Virus record (IMG/VR): IMGVR_UViG_2728369181_000009
Origin: a virus
Taxonomy: Duplodnaviria; Heunggongvirae; Uroviricota; Caudoviricetes
DNA length: 15,124 nt
Reading direction: 5' to 3' (one strand)
Below the pieces are notes generated by a model, which was given only the letters and a program-made list of their open reading frames with translations, was not told the origin of the DNA and searched no databases. This document shows, piece after piece, positions 2,641-15,124 of the stretch; the stretch's first letter is position 1, and every line of letters starts with the position of its first letter. The position numbers were made by a program, and so were the translations under genes.

Positions 2641-2931
2641 CTACCGCCGTAACCGTTCCGGCTTCTTCCACCGGTAAGTATTTTTCGCGCTCTCCCTCCG
2701 TTGTTGAGAACGGCGACGGCATGACAGCAATTCAAGAACCCTGATTCGTATGTCGCACATATCAGTGTCATTAAGCTGGATACCATCACGGCGCATCACC
2801 TCAGCCACCACACGCGCGTAATTTTCGGCGGTGACGGTATCCGGCTGCGTGGCCTCCTGTGTGCCTGTAGCCTGGCTGATTCCGGTAATACTGCGAATTA
2901 TCCCGAGTACTTCGGCTTCGGTCATTATCAT
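2641..2931 (-). CDS. Hypothetical protein, 96 aa, basic C-terminus; last gene of the metallopeptidase operon
   Basis: ORF with ATG at 2931, 35 bp downstream of the peptidase stop, with a weak RBS. The N-terminal two-thirds look protein-like; the Arg-rich tail is less certain. No recognisable motif. Confidence 0.35.
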   Translation of the reverse strand: MIMTEAEVLGIIRSITGISQATGTQEATQPDTVTAENYARVVAEVMRRDGIQLNDTDMCDIRIRVLELLSCRRRSQQRRESAKNTYRWKKPERLRR

Positions 2932-2966
2932 GGCCTAATAAATCGTCGAATGAGTTTGGCCGGGAG

Positions 2967-3638
2967 TTATTCCACCAGCAAAAATGGCGTAGCCCGGTCA
3001 ATGACGTTGATGCCGATTAGCGAGCTAACATTGCGACCATTAATAATGCTATCCCGTTCAAGCAAATGCGCTATTTTTTTCACTTCATACCAATATTGAG
3101 CCATGAGGGCTTTAGTCTTTTCAACAAGTTTAGAAAGCATTAACTCCCTGTTAGTTCGCTTATCTGTGGCGCAGATTAAATCGAGCATGTCATTTACGTT
3201 AGCCATGTCATAGCGATGAGGTAGTGAATACTTTTTGTTGAAAATATCGTTGTTTTCGTAAAGGGCTTCGCTTACTGGTCCGGCGAGGGATACAAAAGCG
3301 GCCTTTATTGCATCGCGCTTTATACCATCCGCGTAGTAACGTATGAAAGGGATAACTTTACCATCCCGCCCAACTACACCAGATTTACTATCCCGCAAAC
3401 GCCCGAGATCGTGGCTGTGAATTATGCTGTGTTTAACAACGCCCAAACACTTGGCCTCATGTACATGTTCGCCAGCAACGTAACCGTATTCATCCATAAC
3501 GGCGATAACCTGTACATCTAAGCGAATAAGCCATGCAGCTACTGCATGGCCCGCTTCGTGGAATGCTACACATCGTTTACCATCGCCTATCCAGTTATAG
3601 AACATTTCCTGCTCATATATCTGGTGAATGGCGCCCAT
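2967..3638 (-). CDS. Standalone zinc metallopeptidase, 223 aa, HEAGH motif (FtsH/M41-like or ImmA/IrrE-like), no ATPase domain
   Basis: Sequence FHEAGHAVAAWLIRLDVQVIAVMDEYG at residues 26-52 contains the HExxH zinc-binding motif in the HEAGHA form typical of FtsH-type protease domains. GAGGG RBS 8 nt upstream. Start ATG overlaps the upstream stop (TAATG). Family assignment is by motif recognition only. Confidence 0.55.
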   Translation of the reverse strand: MGAIHQIYEQEMFYNWIGDGKRCVAFHEAGHAVAAWLIRLDVQVIAVMDEYGYVAGEHVHEAKCLGVVKHSIIHSHDLGRLRDSKSGVVGRDGKVIPFIRYYADGIKRDAIKAAFVSLAGPVSEALYENNDIFNKKYSLPHRYDMANVNDMLDLICATDKRTNRELMLSKLVEKTKALMAQYWYEVKKIAHLLERDSIINGRNVSSLIGINVIDRATPFLLVE

Positions 3639-3814
3639 TACGCGCCCTCGCTTGCCAGTGAGGCCAGAGCCTTAGCCATGAGGCCGCGGGCAATCTGGTG
3701 AACGGTGGGAGCGACGCCGAGATTGGAGCGCTGGCGTTCACGTTCCTGAATGTTGCGTATGGCCTGCATCTGCTCGGCGGACAGCAGGACCGGCTTAACG
3801 TTTGGCTTTCTCAT
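3638..3814 (-). CDS. Small hypothetical protein, about 58 aa, possibly DNA-binding
   Basis: The six-frame ORF 3638..3907 overlaps the upstream gene by 113 bp. An internal ATG at 3814 (MRKPNVKPVLL...) has a GGAG RBS and lies 16 nt after the upstream TAA, so it is the likely start. Its stop overlaps the peptidase start. Confidence 0.4.
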   Translation of the reverse strand: MRKPNVKPVLLSAEQMQAIRNIQERERQRSNLGVAPTVHQIARGLMAKALASLASEGA

Positions 3815-3989
3815 TCTGTTCACTCCAGAACCGTGCATTTGATTCGTTGAGTTGCTGCAGGTTGCGACTCTGGCGATCGAAGTTATTGCGTGCCTTTGCC
3901 GCTTCAAGATCCTGACGGGTCAGCATCGGGCGGTGGGCGCGCTGTGGGTTGCCTGCGGCTAATTTCGGATCATAGATAGGCATGCTCAT
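3795..3989 (-). CDS. Small hypothetical protein, 64 aa
   Basis: ORF begins 6 nt after the stop of the 183 aa gene; hydrophilic, basic/Gln-rich. No recognisable motif. Confidence 0.4.
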   Translation of the reverse strand: MSMPIYDPKLAAGNPQRAHRPMLTRQDLEAAKARNNFDRQSRNLQQLNESNARFWSEQNEKAKR

Positions 3990-3995
3990 ATCTCT

Positions 3996-4547
3996 TTAGT
4001 GTTTTTTGCCCCAGAAGGTGGCGTTGTCAGCATTGATGCTGCGGATTGCGTCTCCTGTAGAAATTATTTTCGGAGCGATATTGTTTGCTTTCATGTAGTC
4101 GCCAACCTGCTCGAGTATATCGATAGCCTGATCCAGATGGATTTCTGACATTGGGTTAGGGTGTACGGCGCTGAACGCCTCAGCAGGGGCGTAGCGCAGC
4201 ACATCGAGCGCAACGATGCGCGGGTCGGCGTCGGGCAGTGCTGAATCGTATTTCGGCGCTACGGCACGTACCAGACGCATGAACTCAGCATTCATTGCTG
4301 TCGGTGCCGTGGAAGTAGCAGACGTGCCATTCAAACCGCGGGAAATCATATCGCTGTCGCGGGTGTACATGCGACGCAGGCGGTCGCCGGTGGCGATGCG
4401 CATTTTGCGTTCTTTCTCGAGTGTCGTTGCAAGACTTGCAATGATGGTCGCAACGGTTCCGCTGCACTGGAACTCCTCTTTACTGCCGTCGGCATACGTC
4501 ACCACGCCATCTTCGCCAGTCACTGCGATGTTTGTAATATCTTTCAT
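3996..4547 (-). CDS. Hypothetical protein, 183 aa; first gene of the five-gene operon
   Basis: ATG at 4547 with GAGG about 10 nt upstream. Preceded by an AT-rich promoter region and followed by four tightly linked genes. No family recognised; not obviously similar to P4 Sid, Delta or Psu as I recall them. Confidence 0.5.
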   Translation of the reverse strand: MKDITNIAVTGEDGVVTYADGSKEEFQCSGTVATIIASLATTLEKERKMRIATGDRLRRMYTRDSDMISRGLNGTSATSTAPTAMNAEFMRLVRAVAPKYDSALPDADPRIVALDVLRYAPAEAFSAVHPNPMSEIHLDQAIDILEQVGDYMKANNIAPKIISTGDAIRSINADNATFWGKKH

Positions 4548-4660
4548 CGGTCAGACCTCAGTATGTTCTATCGGATATTTATGTTTCATTAAACGCAATA
4601 ATGATATTTATTGTTGCAATTATTGCAATGTGTTTTTCTTGTGATAACATGCAAATTGAG
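4548..4660 (-). promoter_or_regulatory. AT-rich promoter/operator region of the five-gene operon, with perfect palindrome TTGCAAT-T-ATTGCAA
   Basis: 15 bp palindrome at 4614-4628 inside an AT-rich stretch, located between the tandem terminators (4705-4768) and the first operon gene. Flanked by inverted GACCTCA / TGAGGTC at 4554-4560 and 4658-4664. Confidence 0.45.
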
Positions 4661-4704
4661 GTCAGAACTCAATGAGTTGGTTCCAAACATGGTTACCGGT
4701 ACAC

Positions 4705-4736
4705 AAAAGCCCGTGCGTCTCCAGCGCGGGCTTTTT
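4705..4736. terminator. Bidirectional intrinsic terminator
   Basis: Stem AGCCCG / CGGGCT (4708-4713, 4727-4732) with extra inner pairs, flanked by AAAA on the left and TTTTT on the right. Confidence 0.45.
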
Positions 4737-4744
4737 ACTGGCAC

Positions 4745-4768
4745 AAAAAAGCCGGGAAAAATCCCGGC
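4745..4768 (-). terminator. Rho-independent terminator ending the replication-module transcript
   Basis: On the minus strand: GCCGGG, a 6 nt loop ATTTTT, CCCGGC, then TTTTTT. Lies 6 bp after the stop of the 95 aa gene. Confidence 0.6.
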
Positions 4769-4773
4769 CTCCG

Positions 4774-5061
4774 TCACTGACTGCAATTTTTCGATCCAGG
4801 GTATTTCCTGAATGCCTTACCATTGGGCTGATGTAATCCCATCCCGGCATGTGCCCGGCTGATGGTTTTGCGCATCTCCCCGAAATTATCCTGCCTTGCT
4901 GGTGGGCGTGCTGCCTTGTGGATACATTCCGCGCGACGTTTTGCCGCCTGCTCCCGTGCCTTGTCATCATTCGCCAGCATGATGACCTCAGCCCACCGCG
5001 CCGCCGCTCTCCGGTACAGACCACGCGCTTCCAGAGCTTCCGCTTTGCTGTCGTGAATCAT
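4774..5061 (-). CDS. Small helical protein, 95 aa, ANR-like (AraC-negative-regulator family) signature
   Basis: Start ATG overlaps the FinO-like stop (ATGA). N-terminal KAEALEARGLYRRAAARWAEV matches my recollection of the ANR family motif (Y..AA..W). Assignment is tentative. Confidence 0.45.
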   Translation of the reverse strand: MIHDSKAEALEARGLYRRAAARWAEVIMLANDDKAREQAAKRRAECIHKAARPPARQDNFGEMRKTISRAHAGMGLHQPNGKAFRKYPGSKNCSQ

Positions 5062-5600
5062 GCGCCTGTTTTCTCCTTTGCTGCCCGACGCTGACGTTTG
5101 CGTTTCTCATTCAGCGCAACCAGCCGCGTTTCTGCGTCCTGTTGTTCCTGTGGTGTCACCTCGCCGCACGGCTGGCATTTCAGGTCGTAGCGTACCCCAC
5201 CAGCCATTAAGGCGCGGTAATAGCGCGGACACTGCGCATAAGATGCCAGCGTCGCACGCAATGCCCCTGGCCCGAATGCCAGCCCCCTGACGGCGAGATC
5301 CTGCATCAGGTCGTCGAATATCCCCACCTTAAGCGGCTTCGGTGCTTCCCGGCTGAATAATTCAGGCCACAACTCAGTGAGGCGGTTAACGCGTCTGCGG
5401 TTTTTTCGCTGCCGTTTGGTCATATGCCGCCACGGTGTTGCCCCTGTGGGCTTCTGCTGCGCTTTCTGGTTACCGGGCATCACTTTATGCGCCGATGTGG
5501 TTTTATCCTGCTGCTGCGCCGCCTGCGTCGTTTTCTGCGGCGTGCCGTAAATACCTTTTGGTTTTCTGTTAATGGTCAGCTTAGTCATGCTTTGCCCCAT
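5058..5600 (-). CDS. FinO/ProQ-domain RNA-binding protein, about 176-180 aa
   Basis: Basic disordered N-terminus (KRQRKNRRRVNRL) followed by LTELWPELFS...PKPLKVGIFDDLMQDLAVRG...LRATLASYAQCPRYYRALMAGGVRYDLKCQPCGEV, which closely parallels the FinO core and the ProQ N-terminal domain (PLKIGIFQDL...RYDLDGNPCGE). An internal ATG at 5588 with a GGGG SD is the likelier start. Confidence 0.7.
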   Translation of the reverse strand: MGQSMTKLTINRKPKGIYGTPQKTTQAAQQQDKTTSAHKVMPGNQKAQQKPTGATPWRHMTKRQRKNRRRVNRLTELWPELFSREAPKPLKVGIFDDLMQDLAVRGLAFGPGALRATLASYAQCPRYYRALMAGGVRYDLKCQPCGEVTPQEQQDAETRLVALNEKRKRQRRAAKEKTGA

Positions 5601-5606
5601 CGTTAC

Positions 5607-5944
5607 AACTGTCTACCAACTGTCTACCGATATAATTGATTGATTTATTTAATGTTATTAACACATAACAAAAAAACAATCTGCAAACTGTCTACCAACG
5701 GTCTACCGCATTAATACATTGATAATTAATGATTTTTACTAAATGGTAGACAGTGTAGACAGTTAAAAGAGAAATTTAAAAAATGCCCCCTTAACTATCT
5801 GTTTTTTATATACCCCCCGTGGTGTAGGAATATAGAAATAACTGTCTACCTCTCTACCACATTGAAAATATCTTTATAATTCAAAATATTAATTGGTAGA
5901 TGGTTGGTAGAGGGTTAAGTGAATCTGTCTACCAACCGTCTACC
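5607..5944. repeat. Replication origin with iterons: at least 10 copies of (A/C)(A/C)C(T/G)GTCTACC in both orientations, separated by AT-rich spacers
   Basis: AACTGTCTACC at 5607, 5618, 5686 and 5840; AACGGTCTACC at 5697; AACCGTCTACC at 5934; CTGTCTACC at 5925; inverted GGTAGACAG / TGTAGACAG at 5745-5762; GGTAGATGG / GGTAGAGGG at 5895-5912. Directly 3' of the primase gene. Confidence 0.7.
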
Positions 5945-5971
5945 TTTACGTTTCAGCTTATAAATTTCGTA

Positions 5972-7777
5972 TTATGTTCTGTCGTTAATCCCTGTAGCTG
6001 CTGGCAACCAGCCATCAGCATCATCATCTAACAGAACATTTGTTATCACTCGCCCTTTATCCGGGCCTTTAGTGCATTTAGCCCGCTTATACTCCTTTCC
6101 GTATTCCGCCATAGCTCCTGGCATATCAGTACCAAAGCGTGTCAGTGATACTGGTTTTCCCAGGCCATGCGCTGACATATAGGCTAAATAAGCATGATAC
6201 AGGTATCGCCTCGGGCTAAATGGCACTATTTCCGCATTGCCCACCATCATTCCTTCACATTTAACCAACGACATCAGATAGCCGCAAAAGTCCACCAGTG
6301 AATCACCTTCGCGCTTTATCAACAGCGCTTCTTCTGATTTTTGCTGCTCATAAAGTAGTCTTTTAGCTTCGTCCTGGTCGGTAAATCGTGTTAGCAAATG
6401 GCGAATCACTACCGCCAGTTCGCCTTCTATCTTTTCCGCCAGCATGGGATCGCGTTCGTTCTCCGGTACGACCTCAGAGAAATTAAATATCACCCTACGA
6501 CGCGAGATCCCCCCGCTTCGGTCACTGAATGACATGGCGTTATTGTTTACCGCAAGCACTACTGCCGGAATACGTGTGGAGTAGGGGGCTTTATGTTTCG
6601 GATCAATTGCCACCTTGTCGCCGCCAGTAATTGCCTTAATTCCTGCACCATCGCCAGCGTAGCGAGTCATATCCGGCATGATAATCAGCGAAAAGCCAAC
6701 TACTAACGCGCGTTCCCTTGCGTCTTCCAGAGCCTTCATGCTTGCCGATACTGTGTTGGCCTTACCCGCCAGCATGGTACAAATCTCAGCCATCACACTT
6801 TTACCGCTTCCGCCTGGGCCTGTTACCTCAAGGAATAACTGCCAGTCGTACCGGTTCGCCAGTACCATGAATAATGCCGCCAGTACGCGATCAGCTTTAC
6901 GCTCATTATCTGCCACCGAACGACGCAGCCACTTCCAGAAATTCGGCGCATGTGTTGCCAGCGTTTCCCCCTCTGCTGGTGGGCTGAACGGTAATTCACT
7001 GGCATTTAACAACCAGTCATTTTTGTTATGCTCCCGAAAATTTCCCGTCCGGGTATCAAATACCCCGTTACTGAATCCAATAAGATTCCTGTCTGCCCCG
7101 CCCATAACAGGCAGGCTCAATTTCATTGTGTCTACGGCAAATTTAATGGCGTTTTGCGAATAACTGATTCCAGCATCAATAAAAATCTTCGCCATAGACC
7201 GCTGGAGTTCCTTATCAGATACAGGCACCCAGACAATTCCGTTGTAATGGTGAACTACATCAGAATCATCATTTATAGCCAGTGCTCTTCCATAATATTC
7301 AAGTAACACTTCCCCTCTCTGGCTGGCTCCCATCTGATTTAGTGCTGGCCTGGATAGGTCAATATTTTTTGTGGCTAATTTCATCGCTGAAACTTCCCCA
7401 CTCTCTGCCTGTTCGCGGATCCGTTGCAGGTAGTCGCGCCAGTTTTCCGGCTCCCGGTCGGTGATACCTTTGTATAATTTCGCGTCCTGTACACCAGCCA
7501 GCGCCAGCTTTTCAGCAATAGCATTGATCTGGATTGGCTCTATCTCCCCCGCGAGATAGACACGCGCAAAGCGACGTTCATCGTCGACAATGCGGATATT
7601 CGCCAGGTCTGCCAGTTGCTTTGGCCCCAGGTAAACAGGAGGCACGTTATCGCCGTGTTTTCGTCCTTCGCTTTCAATCCAGTGTTGAGCATGGGCGTAA
7701 GCATCCGTCCCGGCAAAAATGATTACCTCGGTGAATTTATCCTTCGGCTGATATTTTAAATTCGGTGCGTTTTTCAC
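5972..7777 (-). CDS. Replication primase/helicase, 601 aa (P4 alpha-like; P4-family primase C-terminal NTPase domain)
   Basis: Walker A motif VTGPGGSGKS in the C-terminal half, an N-terminal primase-like region, size and position upstream of the iterons. Start overlaps the upstream gene stop (ATGA). Confidence 0.8.
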   Translation of the reverse strand: MKNAPNLKYQPKDKFTEVIIFAGTDAYAHAQHWIESEGRKHGDNVPPVYLGPKQLADLANIRIVDDERRFARVYLAGEIEPIQINAIAEKLALAGVQDAKLYKGITDREPENWRDYLQRIREQAESGEVSAMKLATKNIDLSRPALNQMGASQRGEVLLEYYGRALAINDDSDVVHHYNGIVWVPVSDKELQRSMAKIFIDAGISYSQNAIKFAVDTMKLSLPVMGGADRNLIGFSNGVFDTRTGNFREHNKNDWLLNASELPFSPPAEGETLATHAPNFWKWLRRSVADNERKADRVLAALFMVLANRYDWQLFLEVTGPGGSGKSVMAEICTMLAGKANTVSASMKALEDARERALVVGFSLIIMPDMTRYAGDGAGIKAITGGDKVAIDPKHKAPYSTRIPAVVLAVNNNAMSFSDRSGGISRRRVIFNFSEVVPENERDPMLAEKIEGELAVVIRHLLTRFTDQDEAKRLLYEQQKSEEALLIKREGDSLVDFCGYLMSLVKCEGMMVGNAEIVPFSPRRYLYHAYLAYMSAHGLGKPVSLTRFGTDMPGAMAEYGKEYKRAKCTKGPDKGRVITNVLLDDDADGWLPAATGINDRT

Positions 7778-8269: not shown

Positions 8270-8495
8270 GGCTTACATCCTCCAGAGATTTTCTTCTGTA
8301 ACGCGTCTCTGCCACATATTCAGCATAGTCCGACGCAATACTAAGAATCATTTCACCCTCTGACTTGTAGCCACTGGTATTGATAAGAAAATATGCAGCT
8401 TTCATCATGTCAGCAATGCTCAACAATGCGCCCGATGTATCTTCCGGTGCGCCATCAAACTCCTGTTTCAGGGAATTAAAACGATCATCACGCAT
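8262..8495 (-). CDS. Hypothetical small protein, 77 aa
   Basis: 8 bp start/stop overlaps with both neighbours; protein-like composition. Confidence 0.45.
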   Translation of the reverse strand: MRDDRFNSLKQEFDGAPEDTSGALLSIADMMKAAYFLINTSGYKSEGEMILSIASDYAEYVAETRYRRKSLEDVSHA

Positions 8496-8871
8496 GTTTA
8501 CCCCCCTGAATGACCTGATAACCGCAACTGGTCAGCAATTCGATAAATTCCGGCAGTGTGCCGAAACAGCAATCATCACGCAGACGTTCGCAGGATACTT
8601 CAACGCCGTTTTCGTAGTGACTCACCATACACCCGGTAAAATGCAGATCATCATCGTGATGGCACGTTGACGGCTTAATCAGTCGCGCACGTTCCGCCAG
8701 CTCCAGCAATGCTTCAACGCTTCCGGCAATTGCACCATCCGGCAGGTGATAATTACTTACCACGCGTCCATTCTCCACGTTGACCAGTAGCTGCCCGGAA
8801 AATATCTCGTCAAACTGAATGCTGTTAAGGTCAGAAATTGACAGGTTATGCATGGTGCACCTCCTGTACAT
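8488..8871 (-). CDS. Hypothetical protein, 121-127 aa
   Basis: ORF in the coupled operon; alternative start at 8853 (MHNLSISD...). No family recognised. Confidence 0.45.
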   Translation of the reverse strand: MYRRCTMHNLSISDLNSIQFDEIFSGQLLVNVENGRVVSNYHLPDGAIAGSVEALLELAERARLIKPSTCHHDDDLHFTGCMVSHYENGVEVSCERLRDDCCFGTLPEFIELLTSCGYQVIQGGKHA

Positions 8872-9070
8872 CAGCCATGATAATTTTTCCGGCCTTATCC
8901 AGTGCCTGATCGGCTTTCAGCTGCACAAATGCTAAATAATGGGAGATGCATTCTGATTCTCTGGCTGCGTGTTTATGCGCCACACCAGCGATAGCAGAAA
9001 TCTCAATAAGTGAATCCATCAGCGTTTTGATAGCGTCTACCGCTGCATCAGGCCATGTTGCATTACACAT
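8846..9070 (-). CDS. Hypothetical small protein, 74 aa
   Basis: ORF in the coupled operon, overlapping its upstream neighbour by 8 bp. Confidence 0.4.
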   Translation of the reverse strand: MCNATWPDAAVDAIKTLMDSLIEISAIAGVAHKHAARESECISHYLAFVQLKADQALDKAGKIIMADVQEVHHA

Positions 9071-9428
9071 GCTCCACCTCCTGGCGAATACGGGCAGCGA
9101 ATACCATCACGCAGCCATCAGGAGATTGCTGGCGTGCTTCCTGTTCGCTGGTGGCCTCGATGTGAATCACGCGCGGTTGTGCCGTACTCAGGGCGATAAA
9201 ACGCCAGATAAAATTGTTTTCGCATTTCTGAATAAACAGCGTGTTTTCTTCGCGCCCTTTCCATGTTGCCGAGATATAGCCCATGTCATTGAGCATCTCG
9301 CAGGCATCAACCAGCGTATCGGCGGCTACGTGTACAGTGTTTTTACCGTCAGCAATGCAATCACGGTGCACCGCCAGGAAGGTGTATATAAATTTAGGGT
9401 GAGTTTGGGTATGCTGTGTTCCAGCCAT
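9063..9428 (-). CDS. Hypothetical protein, 121 aa; first gene of the leftward early operon
   Basis: Internal ATG at 9428 (MAGTQHTQTHPKF...) with GAGG RBS 7 nt upstream. This is the protein-like C-terminal segment of the artefactual 528 aa ORF and sits directly downstream of the palindromic operator. Confidence 0.5.
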   Translation of the reverse strand: MAGTQHTQTHPKFIYTFLAVHRDCIADGKNTVHVAADTLVDACEMLNDMGYISATWKGREENTLFIQKCENNFIWRFIALSTAQPRVIHIEATSEQEARQQSPDGCVMVFAARIRQEVEHV

Positions 9429-9494
9429 AATCGTTACCTCGTTTAACGGTTTGGTTAGACGCCCTGCATGTGTGCCACCACTGCGGGGCGTTGC

Positions 9495-9527
9495 TGTATA
9501 TACACCACAACAATTGGTGTATATACA
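9495..9527. promoter_or_regulatory. Perfect 13 bp inverted repeat operator (TGTATATACACCA, 7 bp spacer, TGGTGTATATACA) in the divergent control region
   Basis: Read directly from the sequence. Related half-sites ACACC-TTTT-GGTGT (9570-9583) and palindrome GTGTACAC (9587-9594) follow. Lies between the divergent starts at 9428 (-) and 9619 (+). Confidence 0.6.
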
Positions 9528-9618
9528 AATTAAATTTAAGTGTGCTACAGTGTCAAGTGTTTTATCAACACACCTTTTGGTGTAATGTGTACACACCTCA
9601 AAATAACCGGACATTCTG

Positions 9619-9924
9619 ATGGCAACAGGAAACATCAACAGCAGATCGCAAATGAAAAATATCCGCTTCCCCCATGATGTAATCGAGGAAATGGAAAATT
9701 CGAAAACGGAAGGGGAAACAATAGCCGCTTTCGTGATTACAGCCGTTCGCGGTGAAATCGCCCGCCGCCAGGCAGAAGGAAGCGGAGAAAATCCCCTGGT
9801 TTCTTCGCTCGATGCCCTAGCGCAGGTGGAAAAAATCGGAGTCAAAGCTGCCGAGGAAATCGGGCAACTCGTCACCGTCGCGCGTGAAGAACTCCAGCGG
9901 CGCAAAGCTAAAGAGCAGGAATAA
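9619..9924 (+). CDS. Ribbon-helix-helix (Arc/Mnt/CopG-like) DNA-binding protein, 90-101 aa; candidate island repressor
   Basis: From the second ATG (9652): MKNIRFPHDVIEEMENSKTEGETIAAFVITAVRGEI fits the RHH pattern (beta strand, helix A, G-x-T turn, helix B), followed by a charged helical tail. One of only two plus-strand genes in the island, divergent from the early operon. No strong SD at either start. Confidence 0.55.
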   Translation: MATGNINSRSQMKNIRFPHDVIEEMENSKTEGETIAAFVITAVRGEIARRQAEGSGENPLVSSLDALAQVEKIGVKAAEEIGQLVTVAREELQRRKAKEQE

Positions 9925-9933
9925 CCACTATAG

Positions 9934-10182
9934 GTGCCGTGGTGTGAGGAACTACGGTGCATTATTTTACAGGGCAGCGCCATGACCAACAAAGAATCAA
10001 CCAATACACCATCACCGGCACGGAAAAAACAGCGCAGAAAGATAGCGTACGAGCATGAGTCAGACAGATTCGCGCCCTGTGCGTTTGTCCTTGAGAAATT
10101 CCTTAAAGAGTACAGGTGCACAAAAATGGGGTCGCATACCTGGAAAACATCGCGGCATGGCAATGTTAAAGAGCAGGAATAG
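9934..10182 (+). CDS. Small basic protein, 66-82 aa, co-oriented with the RHH gene
   Basis: ORF with GTG at 9934 or ATG at 9982; ends in KEQE-stop on the same 15 bp sequence as the RHH gene. Coding status is moderate. Confidence 0.35.
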   Translation: MPWCEELRCIILQGSAMTNKESTNTPSPARKKQRRKIAYEHESDRFAPCAFVLEKFLKEYRCTKMGSHTWKTSRHGNVKEQE

Positions 10183-10649
10183 CCCACCAGCAAGCCAGCA
10201 TATTCACCATAATGACCCTCAGTTAAACATAGAGTCATTGGTGCAAAGCTGACACATTGCCCACCAGCCGCAAATCTGGCATTGTTGGCGATGCGTTCAA
10301 GTATGTAGCTTTCCCACTGGCGGCCCTCTGCGGTCGCCTTTGTTTTATCCAGAACGAAATCAGACATCAGATTGATCAGCACCTGGCGACCTGACAAAAT
10401 CGCATCAGTCGCGCCACCAGCAAAATTTTTTGCTTTCCGGACAGTGTGACCAACGACATTTTGCAGCAAAATATTCTGCATTTCTGGCGTGCTGTAGTAA
10501 CGGTGATCAGCGCCTTCACTCTGTGCGACCACAACGCTATAATCTGCCTCGTAGACAGTAAGCAATATGGCGCAGTAGGCTATTCGTTCACAAAGGCGCT
10601 CCGGCAACGGGGCGCTTTCTCTTTTTGTAACGGTCAGAGCGTTACACAT
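10183..10649 (-). CDS. Hypothetical protein (about 150 aa protein-like segment) with no in-frame stop before running antisense into the RHH module
   Basis: ATG at 10649 overlaps the AntA-like stop by 8 bp and the first ~150 codons look protein-like. The frame then stays open through the antisense of 9619..10182 (Cys/Ser/Arg-rich junk) to 9063. The 3' end is undefined; a disrupted gene or artefact is possible. Confidence 0.3.
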
Positions 10650-11786: not shown

Positions 11787-11896
11787 ACCCTCAGGCCTAA
11801 TGGTTACCGGAAGGAAATTAACCCTAAGGGTGATGGTAAAATTGACGGGGAAGATAAAAAAATACCCTCAGGGTAACAGTAAATCACCCTCAGGGT
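11787..11896. promoter_or_regulatory. Four copies of near-palindromic ACCCT(C/A)AGG(G/C)(T/C) in the alpA upstream region
   Basis: ACCCTCAGGCC at 11787-11797, ACCCTAAGGGT at 11821-11831, ACCCTCAGGGT at 11864-11874 and 11886-11896, each followed by a GGTA-containing tail. All lie between the stop of the 265 aa gene and alpA. Confidence 0.55.
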
Positions 11897-12709: not shown

Positions 12710-12837
12710 ACGCACACCTCAGCGTCCTCTACTGTAGTGGCTGTACCAGTCCGTCGAGGTGTACGGATTTTCGGGAGCGACCCTAGACACAGACTTTTCT
12801 TTCGTCGCTCAAAGTCTACTACTGTATACGCAACCAG

Positions 12838-14216: not shown

Positions 14217-14290
14217 TGGAGCGGGCGAAGGGAATCGAACCCTCGTATAGAGCTTGGGAAGCTCTCGTTCTACCATTGAACTACGCCCGC
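14217..14290 (-). tRNA. glyU: tRNA-Gly (anticodon CCC)
   Basis: Reverse complement reads GCGGGCGTAGTTCAATGGTAGAACGAGAGCTTCCCAAGCTCTATACGAGGGTTCGATTCCCTTCGCCCGCTCCA, 74 nt, with cloverleaf, CCC anticodon in loop CTTCCCAAG, and encoded CCA. Confidence 0.95.
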
Positions 14291-14307
14291 TTCGAGATGC
14301 GTAAGGC

Positions 14308-14337
14308 ATTATAAACCTTACGCTCTCCTTAGCAAGT
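14308..14337 (-). promoter_or_regulatory. Candidate sigma70 promoter of glyU
   Basis: On the minus strand: TTGCTA, about 17 bp spacer, TATAAT ending roughly 17 nt upstream of the mature tRNA 5' end. Confidence 0.4.
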
Positions 14338-14368
14338 ACCACGCTGCTGACTGCTGATTAATTCGCCA

Positions 14369-15124
14369 TCAGCATTTTGGCTTGCTGCCCTGAGGCGGCA
14401 AGTAACGTAGCGGATCAATTGCCGTTGCACGGTAACGAATCTGGAAATGCAGGCGAACAGATGCCGCATCAGTGCTCCCCATAGTGGCGATTTTTTGCCC
14501 AGCTTTCACGCTTTGCCCATTATTTACCAGCATCGTGTCATTATGAGCGTAAGCCGTAATGTAATCTTCACTGTGTTTAATCATGATGAGATTACCGTAG
14601 CCACGCAGCTGGTTGCCCACATACACCACCTTTCCTGCACCCGCGGCGTAAATAGGTGTACCCCGTGGAGCTGAGATATCAATCCCTTTATTGCCGCCAT
14701 CTGCTGTCGAATACGGCATGATAACTTTCCCTGTCGTTGGCCATAACCAACAACGTTGCCCTACTGGCGGCCAGGAAGATTTCGGTACCGCTGATGACGG
14801 TGTAACCGATGCGGTTTTGGTCGTTGATTTGGCGGTTGATTTACGTGTACTACTGCTACTTTTCGCCCCACCCAGTTTTAGTTTCTGACCTACTTCAATG
14901 GTGTAAGGGGGGGAAATGCCGTTCAGTCGCGCCAGTTCTTTTACGCTGGTTCCCGTGGTGCGCGAAATACGATATAGCGTATCCCCCCGTTTCACGGTGT
15001 AAACGGAGCCGGAATACGTTCCTGTATCGGATGATTTGCTACCCGAACAGCCCGCCAAAAGCAGCCCAACCGATAACAACATCACGATACCCAGAGATTT
15101 TTTATTCAGGCGTCCCGCACTCAA
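14369..15124 (-). CDS. ygeR: LysM-domain / M23 (LytM) peptidase-domain outer-membrane lipoprotein, 251 aa
   Basis: Lipobox LLLAGCSG, LysM segment YTVKRGDTLYRISRTTGTSVKELARLNGI, Ser/Thr-rich linker, C-terminal M23-like domain. First codon TTG lies at the window edge. Symbol from my recollection of E. coli YgeR. Confidence 0.8.
   Translation of the reverse strand: MSAGRLNKKSLGIVMLLSVGLLLAGCSGSKSSDTGTYSGSVYTVKRGDTLYRISRTTGTSVKELARLNGISPPYTIEVGQKLKLGGAKSSSSTRKSTAKSTTKTASVTPSSAVPKSSWPPVGQRCWLWPTTGKVIMPYSTADGGNKGIDISAPRGTPIYAAGAGKVVYVGNQLRGYGNLIMIKHSEDYITAYAHNDTMLVNNGQSVKAGQKIATMGSTDAASVRLHFQIRYRATAIDPLRYLPPQGSKPKC

Follow-up and report, generated by a model that had tools for sequence, protein, structure and literature searches.

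Locus and host island

Two small genes on the minus strand, a finO-like gene encoding 180 aa (5058..5600) and a perC-family gene of the PchE type encoding 95 aa (4774..5061), lie next to each other in the window, i.e., the whole stretch of 15,124 nt that was analysed. The former was assigned from its open reading frame, a PF04352 match, profile matches to PDB structures and the RefSeq names of its homologues, and the latter from a PF06069 match. On one side of the pair is a replication origin (5607..5950), in which a repeat search found CTGTCTACC iterons in both orientations and an AT-rich core, followed by a gene for a P4-type primase/helicase (5972..7777, minus strand) with D5_N, DUF5906 and Pox_D5 domains and a TIGR01613 match. 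Transcription of finO must either begin within the origin or run through it, and a promoter-like site occurs on the minus strand at 5856..5829, recognised by its consensus match alone (9/12).

On the other side are two terminators on the minus strand. T1 (4745..4772) is a hairpin of GGCCGGGA and UCCCGGCU followed by a U-run (-18.3 kcal/mol, z -3.4). T2 (4705..4736; inverted repeat I12) is a bidirectional hairpin, preceded by an A-run and followed by a U-run (-18.8 kcal/mol), which was also detected on the plus strand. A preliminary description of this DNA had placed the pair between iterons and a double terminator, and these features agree with it. T1 accompanies the same perC allele in the related loci L038 and L110; T1 together with part of T2 does so in some loci, and unrelated hairpins are present in others. 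Since homology to many other islands stops just beyond T1, between T1 and T2, the T1/T2 interval appears to mark a module boundary. A recombination breakpoint sits in the T2 loop.

A possible small RNA (4655-4740; -32.7 kcal/mol, z -4.2) was noted on the plus strand, in the interval separating the cassette from the operon that follows. Its features are a weak promoter recognised by eye (TTGCAA, 16 nt, TGaTAACAT), T2 as terminator and a 5' hairpin (ATTGAG-N7-CTCAAT), a palindrome that could instead be a protein operator. This candidate is part of the downstream variable module and outside the FinO cassette.

Judged by its sequence, the window holds an Escherichia phage satellite of the PICI type, about 12.7 kb long and inserted at tRNA-Gly(CCC) (14217-14290). 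The length follows from an imperfect copy of the tRNA 3' end at ~1545-1563, which forms the att repeat opposite that at 14217-14235. All island genes are on the minus strand. Beside the tRNA gene are the integrase, the int-alpA RNA motif (RF02996), alpA, an antA-type antirepressor gene, DUF4222, the primase gene and the origin. A tRNA att site with integrase, alpA, a primase with an iteron origin and a size of about 10-15 kb characterise PICIs and are all found here, as is the absence of phage structural or lysis genes from the island. The same architecture was described for Gram-negative PICIs (PMC6092414). In the complete genome that comes closest (97% identity across the region), this island lies between actS and the ETT2 cluster, with the two genes annotated as 'ProQ/FINO family protein' and 'PerC family transcriptional regulator'.

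Several other features of the island were observed. The int-alpA RNA motif is at 12726-12793 (minus strand; 40.3 bits against a gathering score of 35.8), between the integrase stop codon and a 267-aa ORF, and is present too in the related loci L007 and L022. Just upstream of alpA, three copies of the palindrome ACCCT(S)AGGGT (11821-11896; 0.1 expected by chance) resemble operator sites for a regulator of the alpA promoter. In the early region a minus-strand ORF of 528 aa (9063-10649) is probably an artefactual fusion; it overlaps a plus-strand ORF (9619-9924), whose place is taken by a YlcI/YnfO family gene in the closest relative, as well as a 25-nt direct repeat (9902, 10160) and a perfect palindrome with a 13-bp stem (9495-9527). 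Compared with that relative, this region has ~900 bp more, and the C4 RNA of related PICIs is missing from it. The operon downstream of the cassette (2641-4547, minus strand) encodes proteins of 183 aa, 64 aa, 59-89 aa, 223 aa and 96 aa (phrog_1561), of which the 223-aa protein has an FtsH-like HEAGH zinc-protease motif with weak Peptidase_M41 and M50 matches. No PADLOC match and no PHROG function was obtained for this operon, a variable accessory module which might serve in helper interference or defence. In the att-distal ~1 kb (1570-2640) no gene is convincing. On one side the island borders on a gene for a 409-aa transporter (1-1563), and on the other on the tRNA-Gly gene and an actS/ygeR-like LysM/M23 gene (14217-15124). 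As the transporter sits where the closest E. coli genome has the ETT2 type III secretion remnant, the host here appears to be without ETT2 at this locus.

The FinO-domain protein

The 180-aa ORF matched PF04352 (ProQ/FinO) over residues 68-172 with an E-value of 2.9e-22 and 79.1 bits (cut-off 27), covering profile positions 5-108 of 109. The Pfam search proposed in the preliminary description hence bears out the domain that had been aligned by eye. When a profile of 26 homologues was compared with solved structures, the N-terminal domain of ProQ (5nb9; 4.6e-20) and FinO (1dvo; 8.8e-17) were matched, and RocC and NMB1681 likewise; the homologues are labelled 'ProQ/FINO family protein' in RefSeq. 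Since most of the homologues begin with MTKLT, translation may start at the ATG at 5588, which would give a protein of 176 aa.

The structure was modelled with AlphaFold2 run on an alignment of the homologues. The domain (codons 60-178; 5067..5423, minus strand) was predicted with a pLDDT of about 90 and consists of helices at residues 62-77, 94-105, 111-122 and 125-133, a beta hairpin at 136-147 and a last helix at 150-178, within a few residues of which the protein ends. In a Foldseek search of the PDB, all 26 matches at E<=0.001 were FinO-family structures, including 1dvo, 7rgt, 7rgu and 3mw6; the rmsd to FinO (1dvo) was 2.0 A over 102 columns, and the TM-score to RocC was up to 0.84. The ProQ residues Y70, R80, R58 and K35 correspond to Y127, R137, R115 and K91 of the island protein, each of them either invariant or conserved to at least 90% among the 26 homologues. 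Codons 1-58 (5427..5600, minus strand) encode a disordered, Q/T/K-rich basic tail (pLDDT below 50) that is less conserved in amino acid sequence than the domain. Its net charge is +9, and that of residues 59-75 is +8, giving +17 for residues 1-75, which accords with the basic tail described earlier.

The product is therefore read as a genuine FinO/ProQ-domain protein with a disordered basic N-terminal tail and an intact predicted RNA-binding pocket. From the retention of the pocket residues and the behaviour of the family, it is most likely a binder of RNA 3' hairpins. In codons 129-150 amino-acid identity (0.84-0.96) exceeds synonymous codon identity (0.57-0.66), so that the domain is under purifying selection.

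The PerC-family partner

The 95-aa protein matched PF06069 (PerC) over positions 1-89 of 90, with an E-value of 1.4e-32 and 112.3 bits (cut-off 22.6), and phrog_994 with 1.6e-35. The profile matches of both products are far beyond chance level. The protein shares 89% identity with a truncated protein of 54 aa that its source calls PchE, and 62% with a protein named as a member of the PchABC family. Its model has three N-terminal helices with a pLDDT of about 90, and no significant sequence or fold match was found in the PDB. The N-terminal helices superposed on the model of a phage protein annotated as ANR with a TM-score of 0.77 and an rmsd of 0.5 A over 47 columns, with a Foldseek E-value of 2. 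The NCBIfam ANR model (NF033650) gave 14.9 bits (cut-off 32) and an E-value of 0.018. Membership of the ANR family was rejected, as this score is under the cut-off and the PerC assignment is full-length. The term 'ANR-like' used in the preliminary description may thus be retained for the fold, for which the models are suggestive, and not for the family.

The coupling of the two genes by ATGA, claimed before, was confirmed in the sequence: the finO stop codon TGA and the perC start codon ATG overlap at 5058..5061, and AAGGAG precedes the perC ATG by 13 nt. In other alleles the overlap is 0, 4, 11 or 23 nt, or the genes are separated by a 2-nt gap. The pair is accordingly predicted to be translationally coupled.

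Distribution of the cassette

At the megablast level, FinO-PerC DNA was found in 321 of 5426 complete E. coli genomes. At the blastn level, finO-like DNA was found in 1176 of them, with up to 9 copies per genome, and all of the 1660 places were chromosomal and none on plasmids. Relatives of the protein (54-97% identity) come almost entirely from Escherichia and Shigella, the few others being from Salmonella and Citrobacter; a scan of species-representative genomes gave E. ruysiae and E. albertii alone. FinO-domain proteins of plasmids and phages are ~30-40% identical to the island protein, within the domain only. The only plasmid record with a close match, L184 (CP088625.1, recorded as a circular 'plasmid' of 17,858 bp), contains an unannotated match of 62.6% identity in three pieces. 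This circle is small and non-mobilizable, has seven annotated features and may be an excised or episomal satellite and not a plasmid.

Neighbouring genes were classified by tblastn in about 180 loci from genomes, IMG/VR and metagenomes, a redundant and phylogenetically non-independent sample. The usual order is a primase gene (D5_N or DUF927 type), the origin, optionally genes for an 85-aa protein and SSB, then finO, optionally a 138-aa ORF, and perC. The adjacency of SSB and FinO is the commonest arrangement; the window is without SSB, and for this reason the origin abuts finO in it. PerC is within 1.5 kb of FinO in ~124 of the ~180 loci, mostly directly downstream with overlapping or abutting codons, and in five loci PerC comes before FinO. 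FinO stands by itself in about 30 loci; the two inspected (L018 and L155) lie in CP4-like islands, and some others are short contigs. FinO is missing from EcCICFT073 and EcCIMP1, which do have PerC, and SSB occupies the slot in EcCICFT073. The gene called pchE is a truncated perC which overlaps the stop of a 176-aa FinO gene by 4 nt, and the islands bearing it replicate with an AAA_25 helicase.

A separate observation concerns L007-L012, where an ORF of 138 aa, whose PHROG matches are Ant- and terminase-like, lies between finO and a frameshifted perC remnant (8479-9120). This is the context of the commonest finO allele (P0046, more than 4000 blocks of the contig collection). Since perC is a frameshifted remnant there, PerC appears to have decayed in this lineage, in which finO is intact.

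FinO proteins at least 95% identical to that of the window were found behind four unrelated types of iteron, CTGTCTACC, GGGTAGA, CGGGATAT and GTGAACAGT, and the primases upstream of them were only 42-55% identical. The AAA_25 helicase represents a third type of replication protein upstream of FinO.

Search for a partner RNA

An Rfam scan of the whole window at E<=1 returned the tRNA, the int-alpA RNA and a plastid match put down to chance, and nothing else; no match fell in 4500-5860. No 5' or 3' flank of the cassette was conserved across the contexts of the related loci. The pairwise synonymous codon identity of 104 finO alleles was 0.56-0.88 without a plateau; the profile of 54 perC alleles had an exception in the first ~9 codons at the overlap. 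As the synonymous profiles of both genes are otherwise flat, an embedded antisense element was rejected. Two terminator-like sites on the plus strand within finO (5380-5396 and 5536-5549) were taken as chance, because synonymous conservation was not raised there. Some related PICIs carry C4 antisense RNA and isrK. As obligate partners they were rejected, being absent from the window and found in 12 of the 123 loci with enough upstream sequence, by a single-sequence nhmmer screen of limited sensitivity. Through Rfam, flanks, synonymous sites and terminators, no RNA ligand for the FinO protein was identified.

The preliminary description started from the usual partnership of FinO-domain proteins with cis-encoded antisense RNAs and suggested control at the RNA level, either of island replication or of a target in the host or helper. 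Control of replication through such an antisense RNA is not supported by the comparison of sequences, because nearly identical cassettes cross iteron types and primases, and because conserved flanking RNA, an Rfam match and synonymous constraint were not found. An RNA of the host or helper phage may yet be the target.

Discussion

FinO-domain proteins are specialised RNA chaperones of plasmids and global regulators of chromosomes. The protein of the island shares features with both groups and differs from each. It resembles FinO of F-like plasmids (1dvo) in the domain, the fold (28% identity), the basic disordered N-terminal extension and the origin from a mobile element. However, the model of FinO proper (NF010317) gave 61 bits, below its subfamily cut-off of 136, the gene is chromosomal, no equivalent of FinP/traJ and no tra genes are in the window, and the modelled protein lacks the long N-terminal helix. 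ProQ of E. coli (5nb9) is the best match among the solved structures, and the equivalents of its Tyr70 and Arg80 are kept, but the ProQ equivalog model (NF003434) gave 53 bits against a cut-off of 127; the island protein has neither the linker nor the C-terminal Tudor-like domain, and its gene is accessory and not core. FopA of IncI-alpha and PcnR of IncI2 plasmids, compared by their descriptions, are also small, with an N-terminal basic extension that has two positive stretches, without a C-terminal domain, and of mobile-element origin (PMC7491321; PMC9977716). They differ in that their ligands, Inc RNA and the repR stem-loop, belong to the replication module, whereas the island cassette is tied to no single module. 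In a tblastn search IncI plasmids of the FopA type did not stand out; 35 Escherichia plasmid records matched at less than 60% identity.

The partner resembles PerC of EPEC, PchABC and PchE of EHEC and EcCIMP1_025 in its full-length PF06069 match, and its location in a PICI agrees with EcCICFT073, EcCIEDL933 and EcCIMP1 (PMC6092414; PMC11773190). PerC homologues borne by PICIs were already known from these studies (PMC6092414; PMC11773190). PerC/Pch homologues were reported to activate LEE1, to leave it unaffected or to repress it (PMC11773190). With the ANR family, e.g., Aar, the protein shares a small helical build, and its N-terminal ~50 residues align weakly (E 0.018), but it carries an extra 40 residues at the C-terminus. 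An ANR-like nature was likewise proposed for the PerC homologue of EcCIMP1 by its authors (PMC11773190). ProQ/FinO-like genes were listed without functional tests in PICIs of Enterobacter cloacae (PMC13612085) and in episomal satellites of Vibrio (PMC13230959), and a literature search found no study on the function of a satellite FinO protein.

Since PerC coupling is tight and recurrent and the pair has its own terminators, finO-perC is read here, with a probability of roughly 0.45, as a portable regulatory cassette in a post-origin slot that tunes gene expression, its RNA ligand being either encoded in trans or its own mRNA. If the regulator needed an RNA encoded in the replication module, one would expect the two to move together, which is not the case for the FinO cassette. 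As the cassette recombines among unrelated origins and primases, the ligand most likely originates outside the replication module. According to this proposal, the two genes would be transcribed from or through the origin, either as part of the rightward operon of the island or from a promoter embedded in the origin. FinO would clamp one RNA, or a few, by the hairpin and U-tail at their 3' ends and shield them from 3' exonucleases, with the basic tail aiding the pairing with targets, and PerC would work at the transcriptional level. The ligand might come from the host chromosome, other parts of the island, the helper phage or the 3' end of the finO-perC mRNA, and what is tuned would be gene expression and not the copy number of the island. 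FinO-family proteins were shown to bind terminator hairpins with 3' tails (PMC9977716), and exonuclease protection and tail-assisted RNA pairing were described for the family (PMC9977716; PMC7491321). In favour of the portable cassette, a PICI PerC homologue alters LEE1 expression of the host when expressed (PMC11773190). On the other hand, the characterised FinO-domain proteins of mobile elements (FinO, FopA and PcnR) all control transfer or replication of their own element (PMC9977716). The fixed place after the origin, usually beside the SSB gene, could equally mean a role linked to replication.

Two such roles were considered. A copy control like that of FopA on Inc/repZ or PcnR on repR, in which FinO binds an antisense RNA of the island or a stem-loop in the leader of the primase operon and limits replication, would agree with finO abutting the iterons here and in PICIs always following just after the origin, and with the repression of their own plasmid's replication by FopA and PcnR (PMC9977716). 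It is nevertheless regarded as unlikely: one cassette occurs behind at least four iteron types and three types of replication protein, no conserved flanking non-coding element, Rfam match or synonymous-site constraint was found around or within it, and FinO homologues also occur in CP4-like islands, where neither a primase nor an origin is near. An accessory of replication, binding nucleic-acid hairpins or primers at the origin together with SSB or in its place, appears very improbable. SSB and FinO are most commonly adjacent, FinO takes the place of SSB beside the origin in the window, and the slot in EcCICFT073 holds SSB and PerC without FinO, all of which this role could explain; yet the conserved pocket residues are those for recognition of RNA 3' ends (PMC9977716), FinO is also found away from any origin, and the fold has no established role in DNA binding.

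The independence of the cassette from the replication module would also fit a target in trans in the helper phage, where FinO could bind a structured RNA, such as a lambdoid antisense RNA or terminator, and favour lytic growth or interfere with the helper. The post-origin region of PICIs often holds genes for helper interference, e.g., rppA in EcCICFT073 (PMC6739421), and FinO-domain proteins are found in phages too. However, the cassette has no PADLOC match, homologues are present outside PICIs, nothing in the sequence indicates a phage RNA, and no helper phage is known for this island, so that a helper-directed factor is considered improbable. A role of the cassette in defence was rejected, as PADLOC gave no match. 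It is rather doubtful, though conceivable, that SSB-FinO-PerC forms a two-layer regulator, both transcriptional and post-transcriptional, in which FinO captures RNAs of the helper or host by their terminator hairpins.

The finO-perC cassette is common; both of its genes are already annotated by RefSeq, and papers of 2025-2026 list both in satellites. About one complete E. coli genome in five has it, EHEC-type islands with a partner called pchE being among the carriers, and for this reason the definition of its RNA ligand would bring post-transcriptional control into the biology of satellite, helper and host and into the puzzling behaviour of PerC/Pch homologues. Because the portable cassette moves independently of the replication module, the search for the ligand should turn to RNAs encoded in trans and not to the origin. 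If the two-layer regulator were true, it would be the first manipulation of helper or host by a phage satellite that is based on an RNA chaperone, and it would explain the divergent LEE phenotypes of the PICI PerC homologues.
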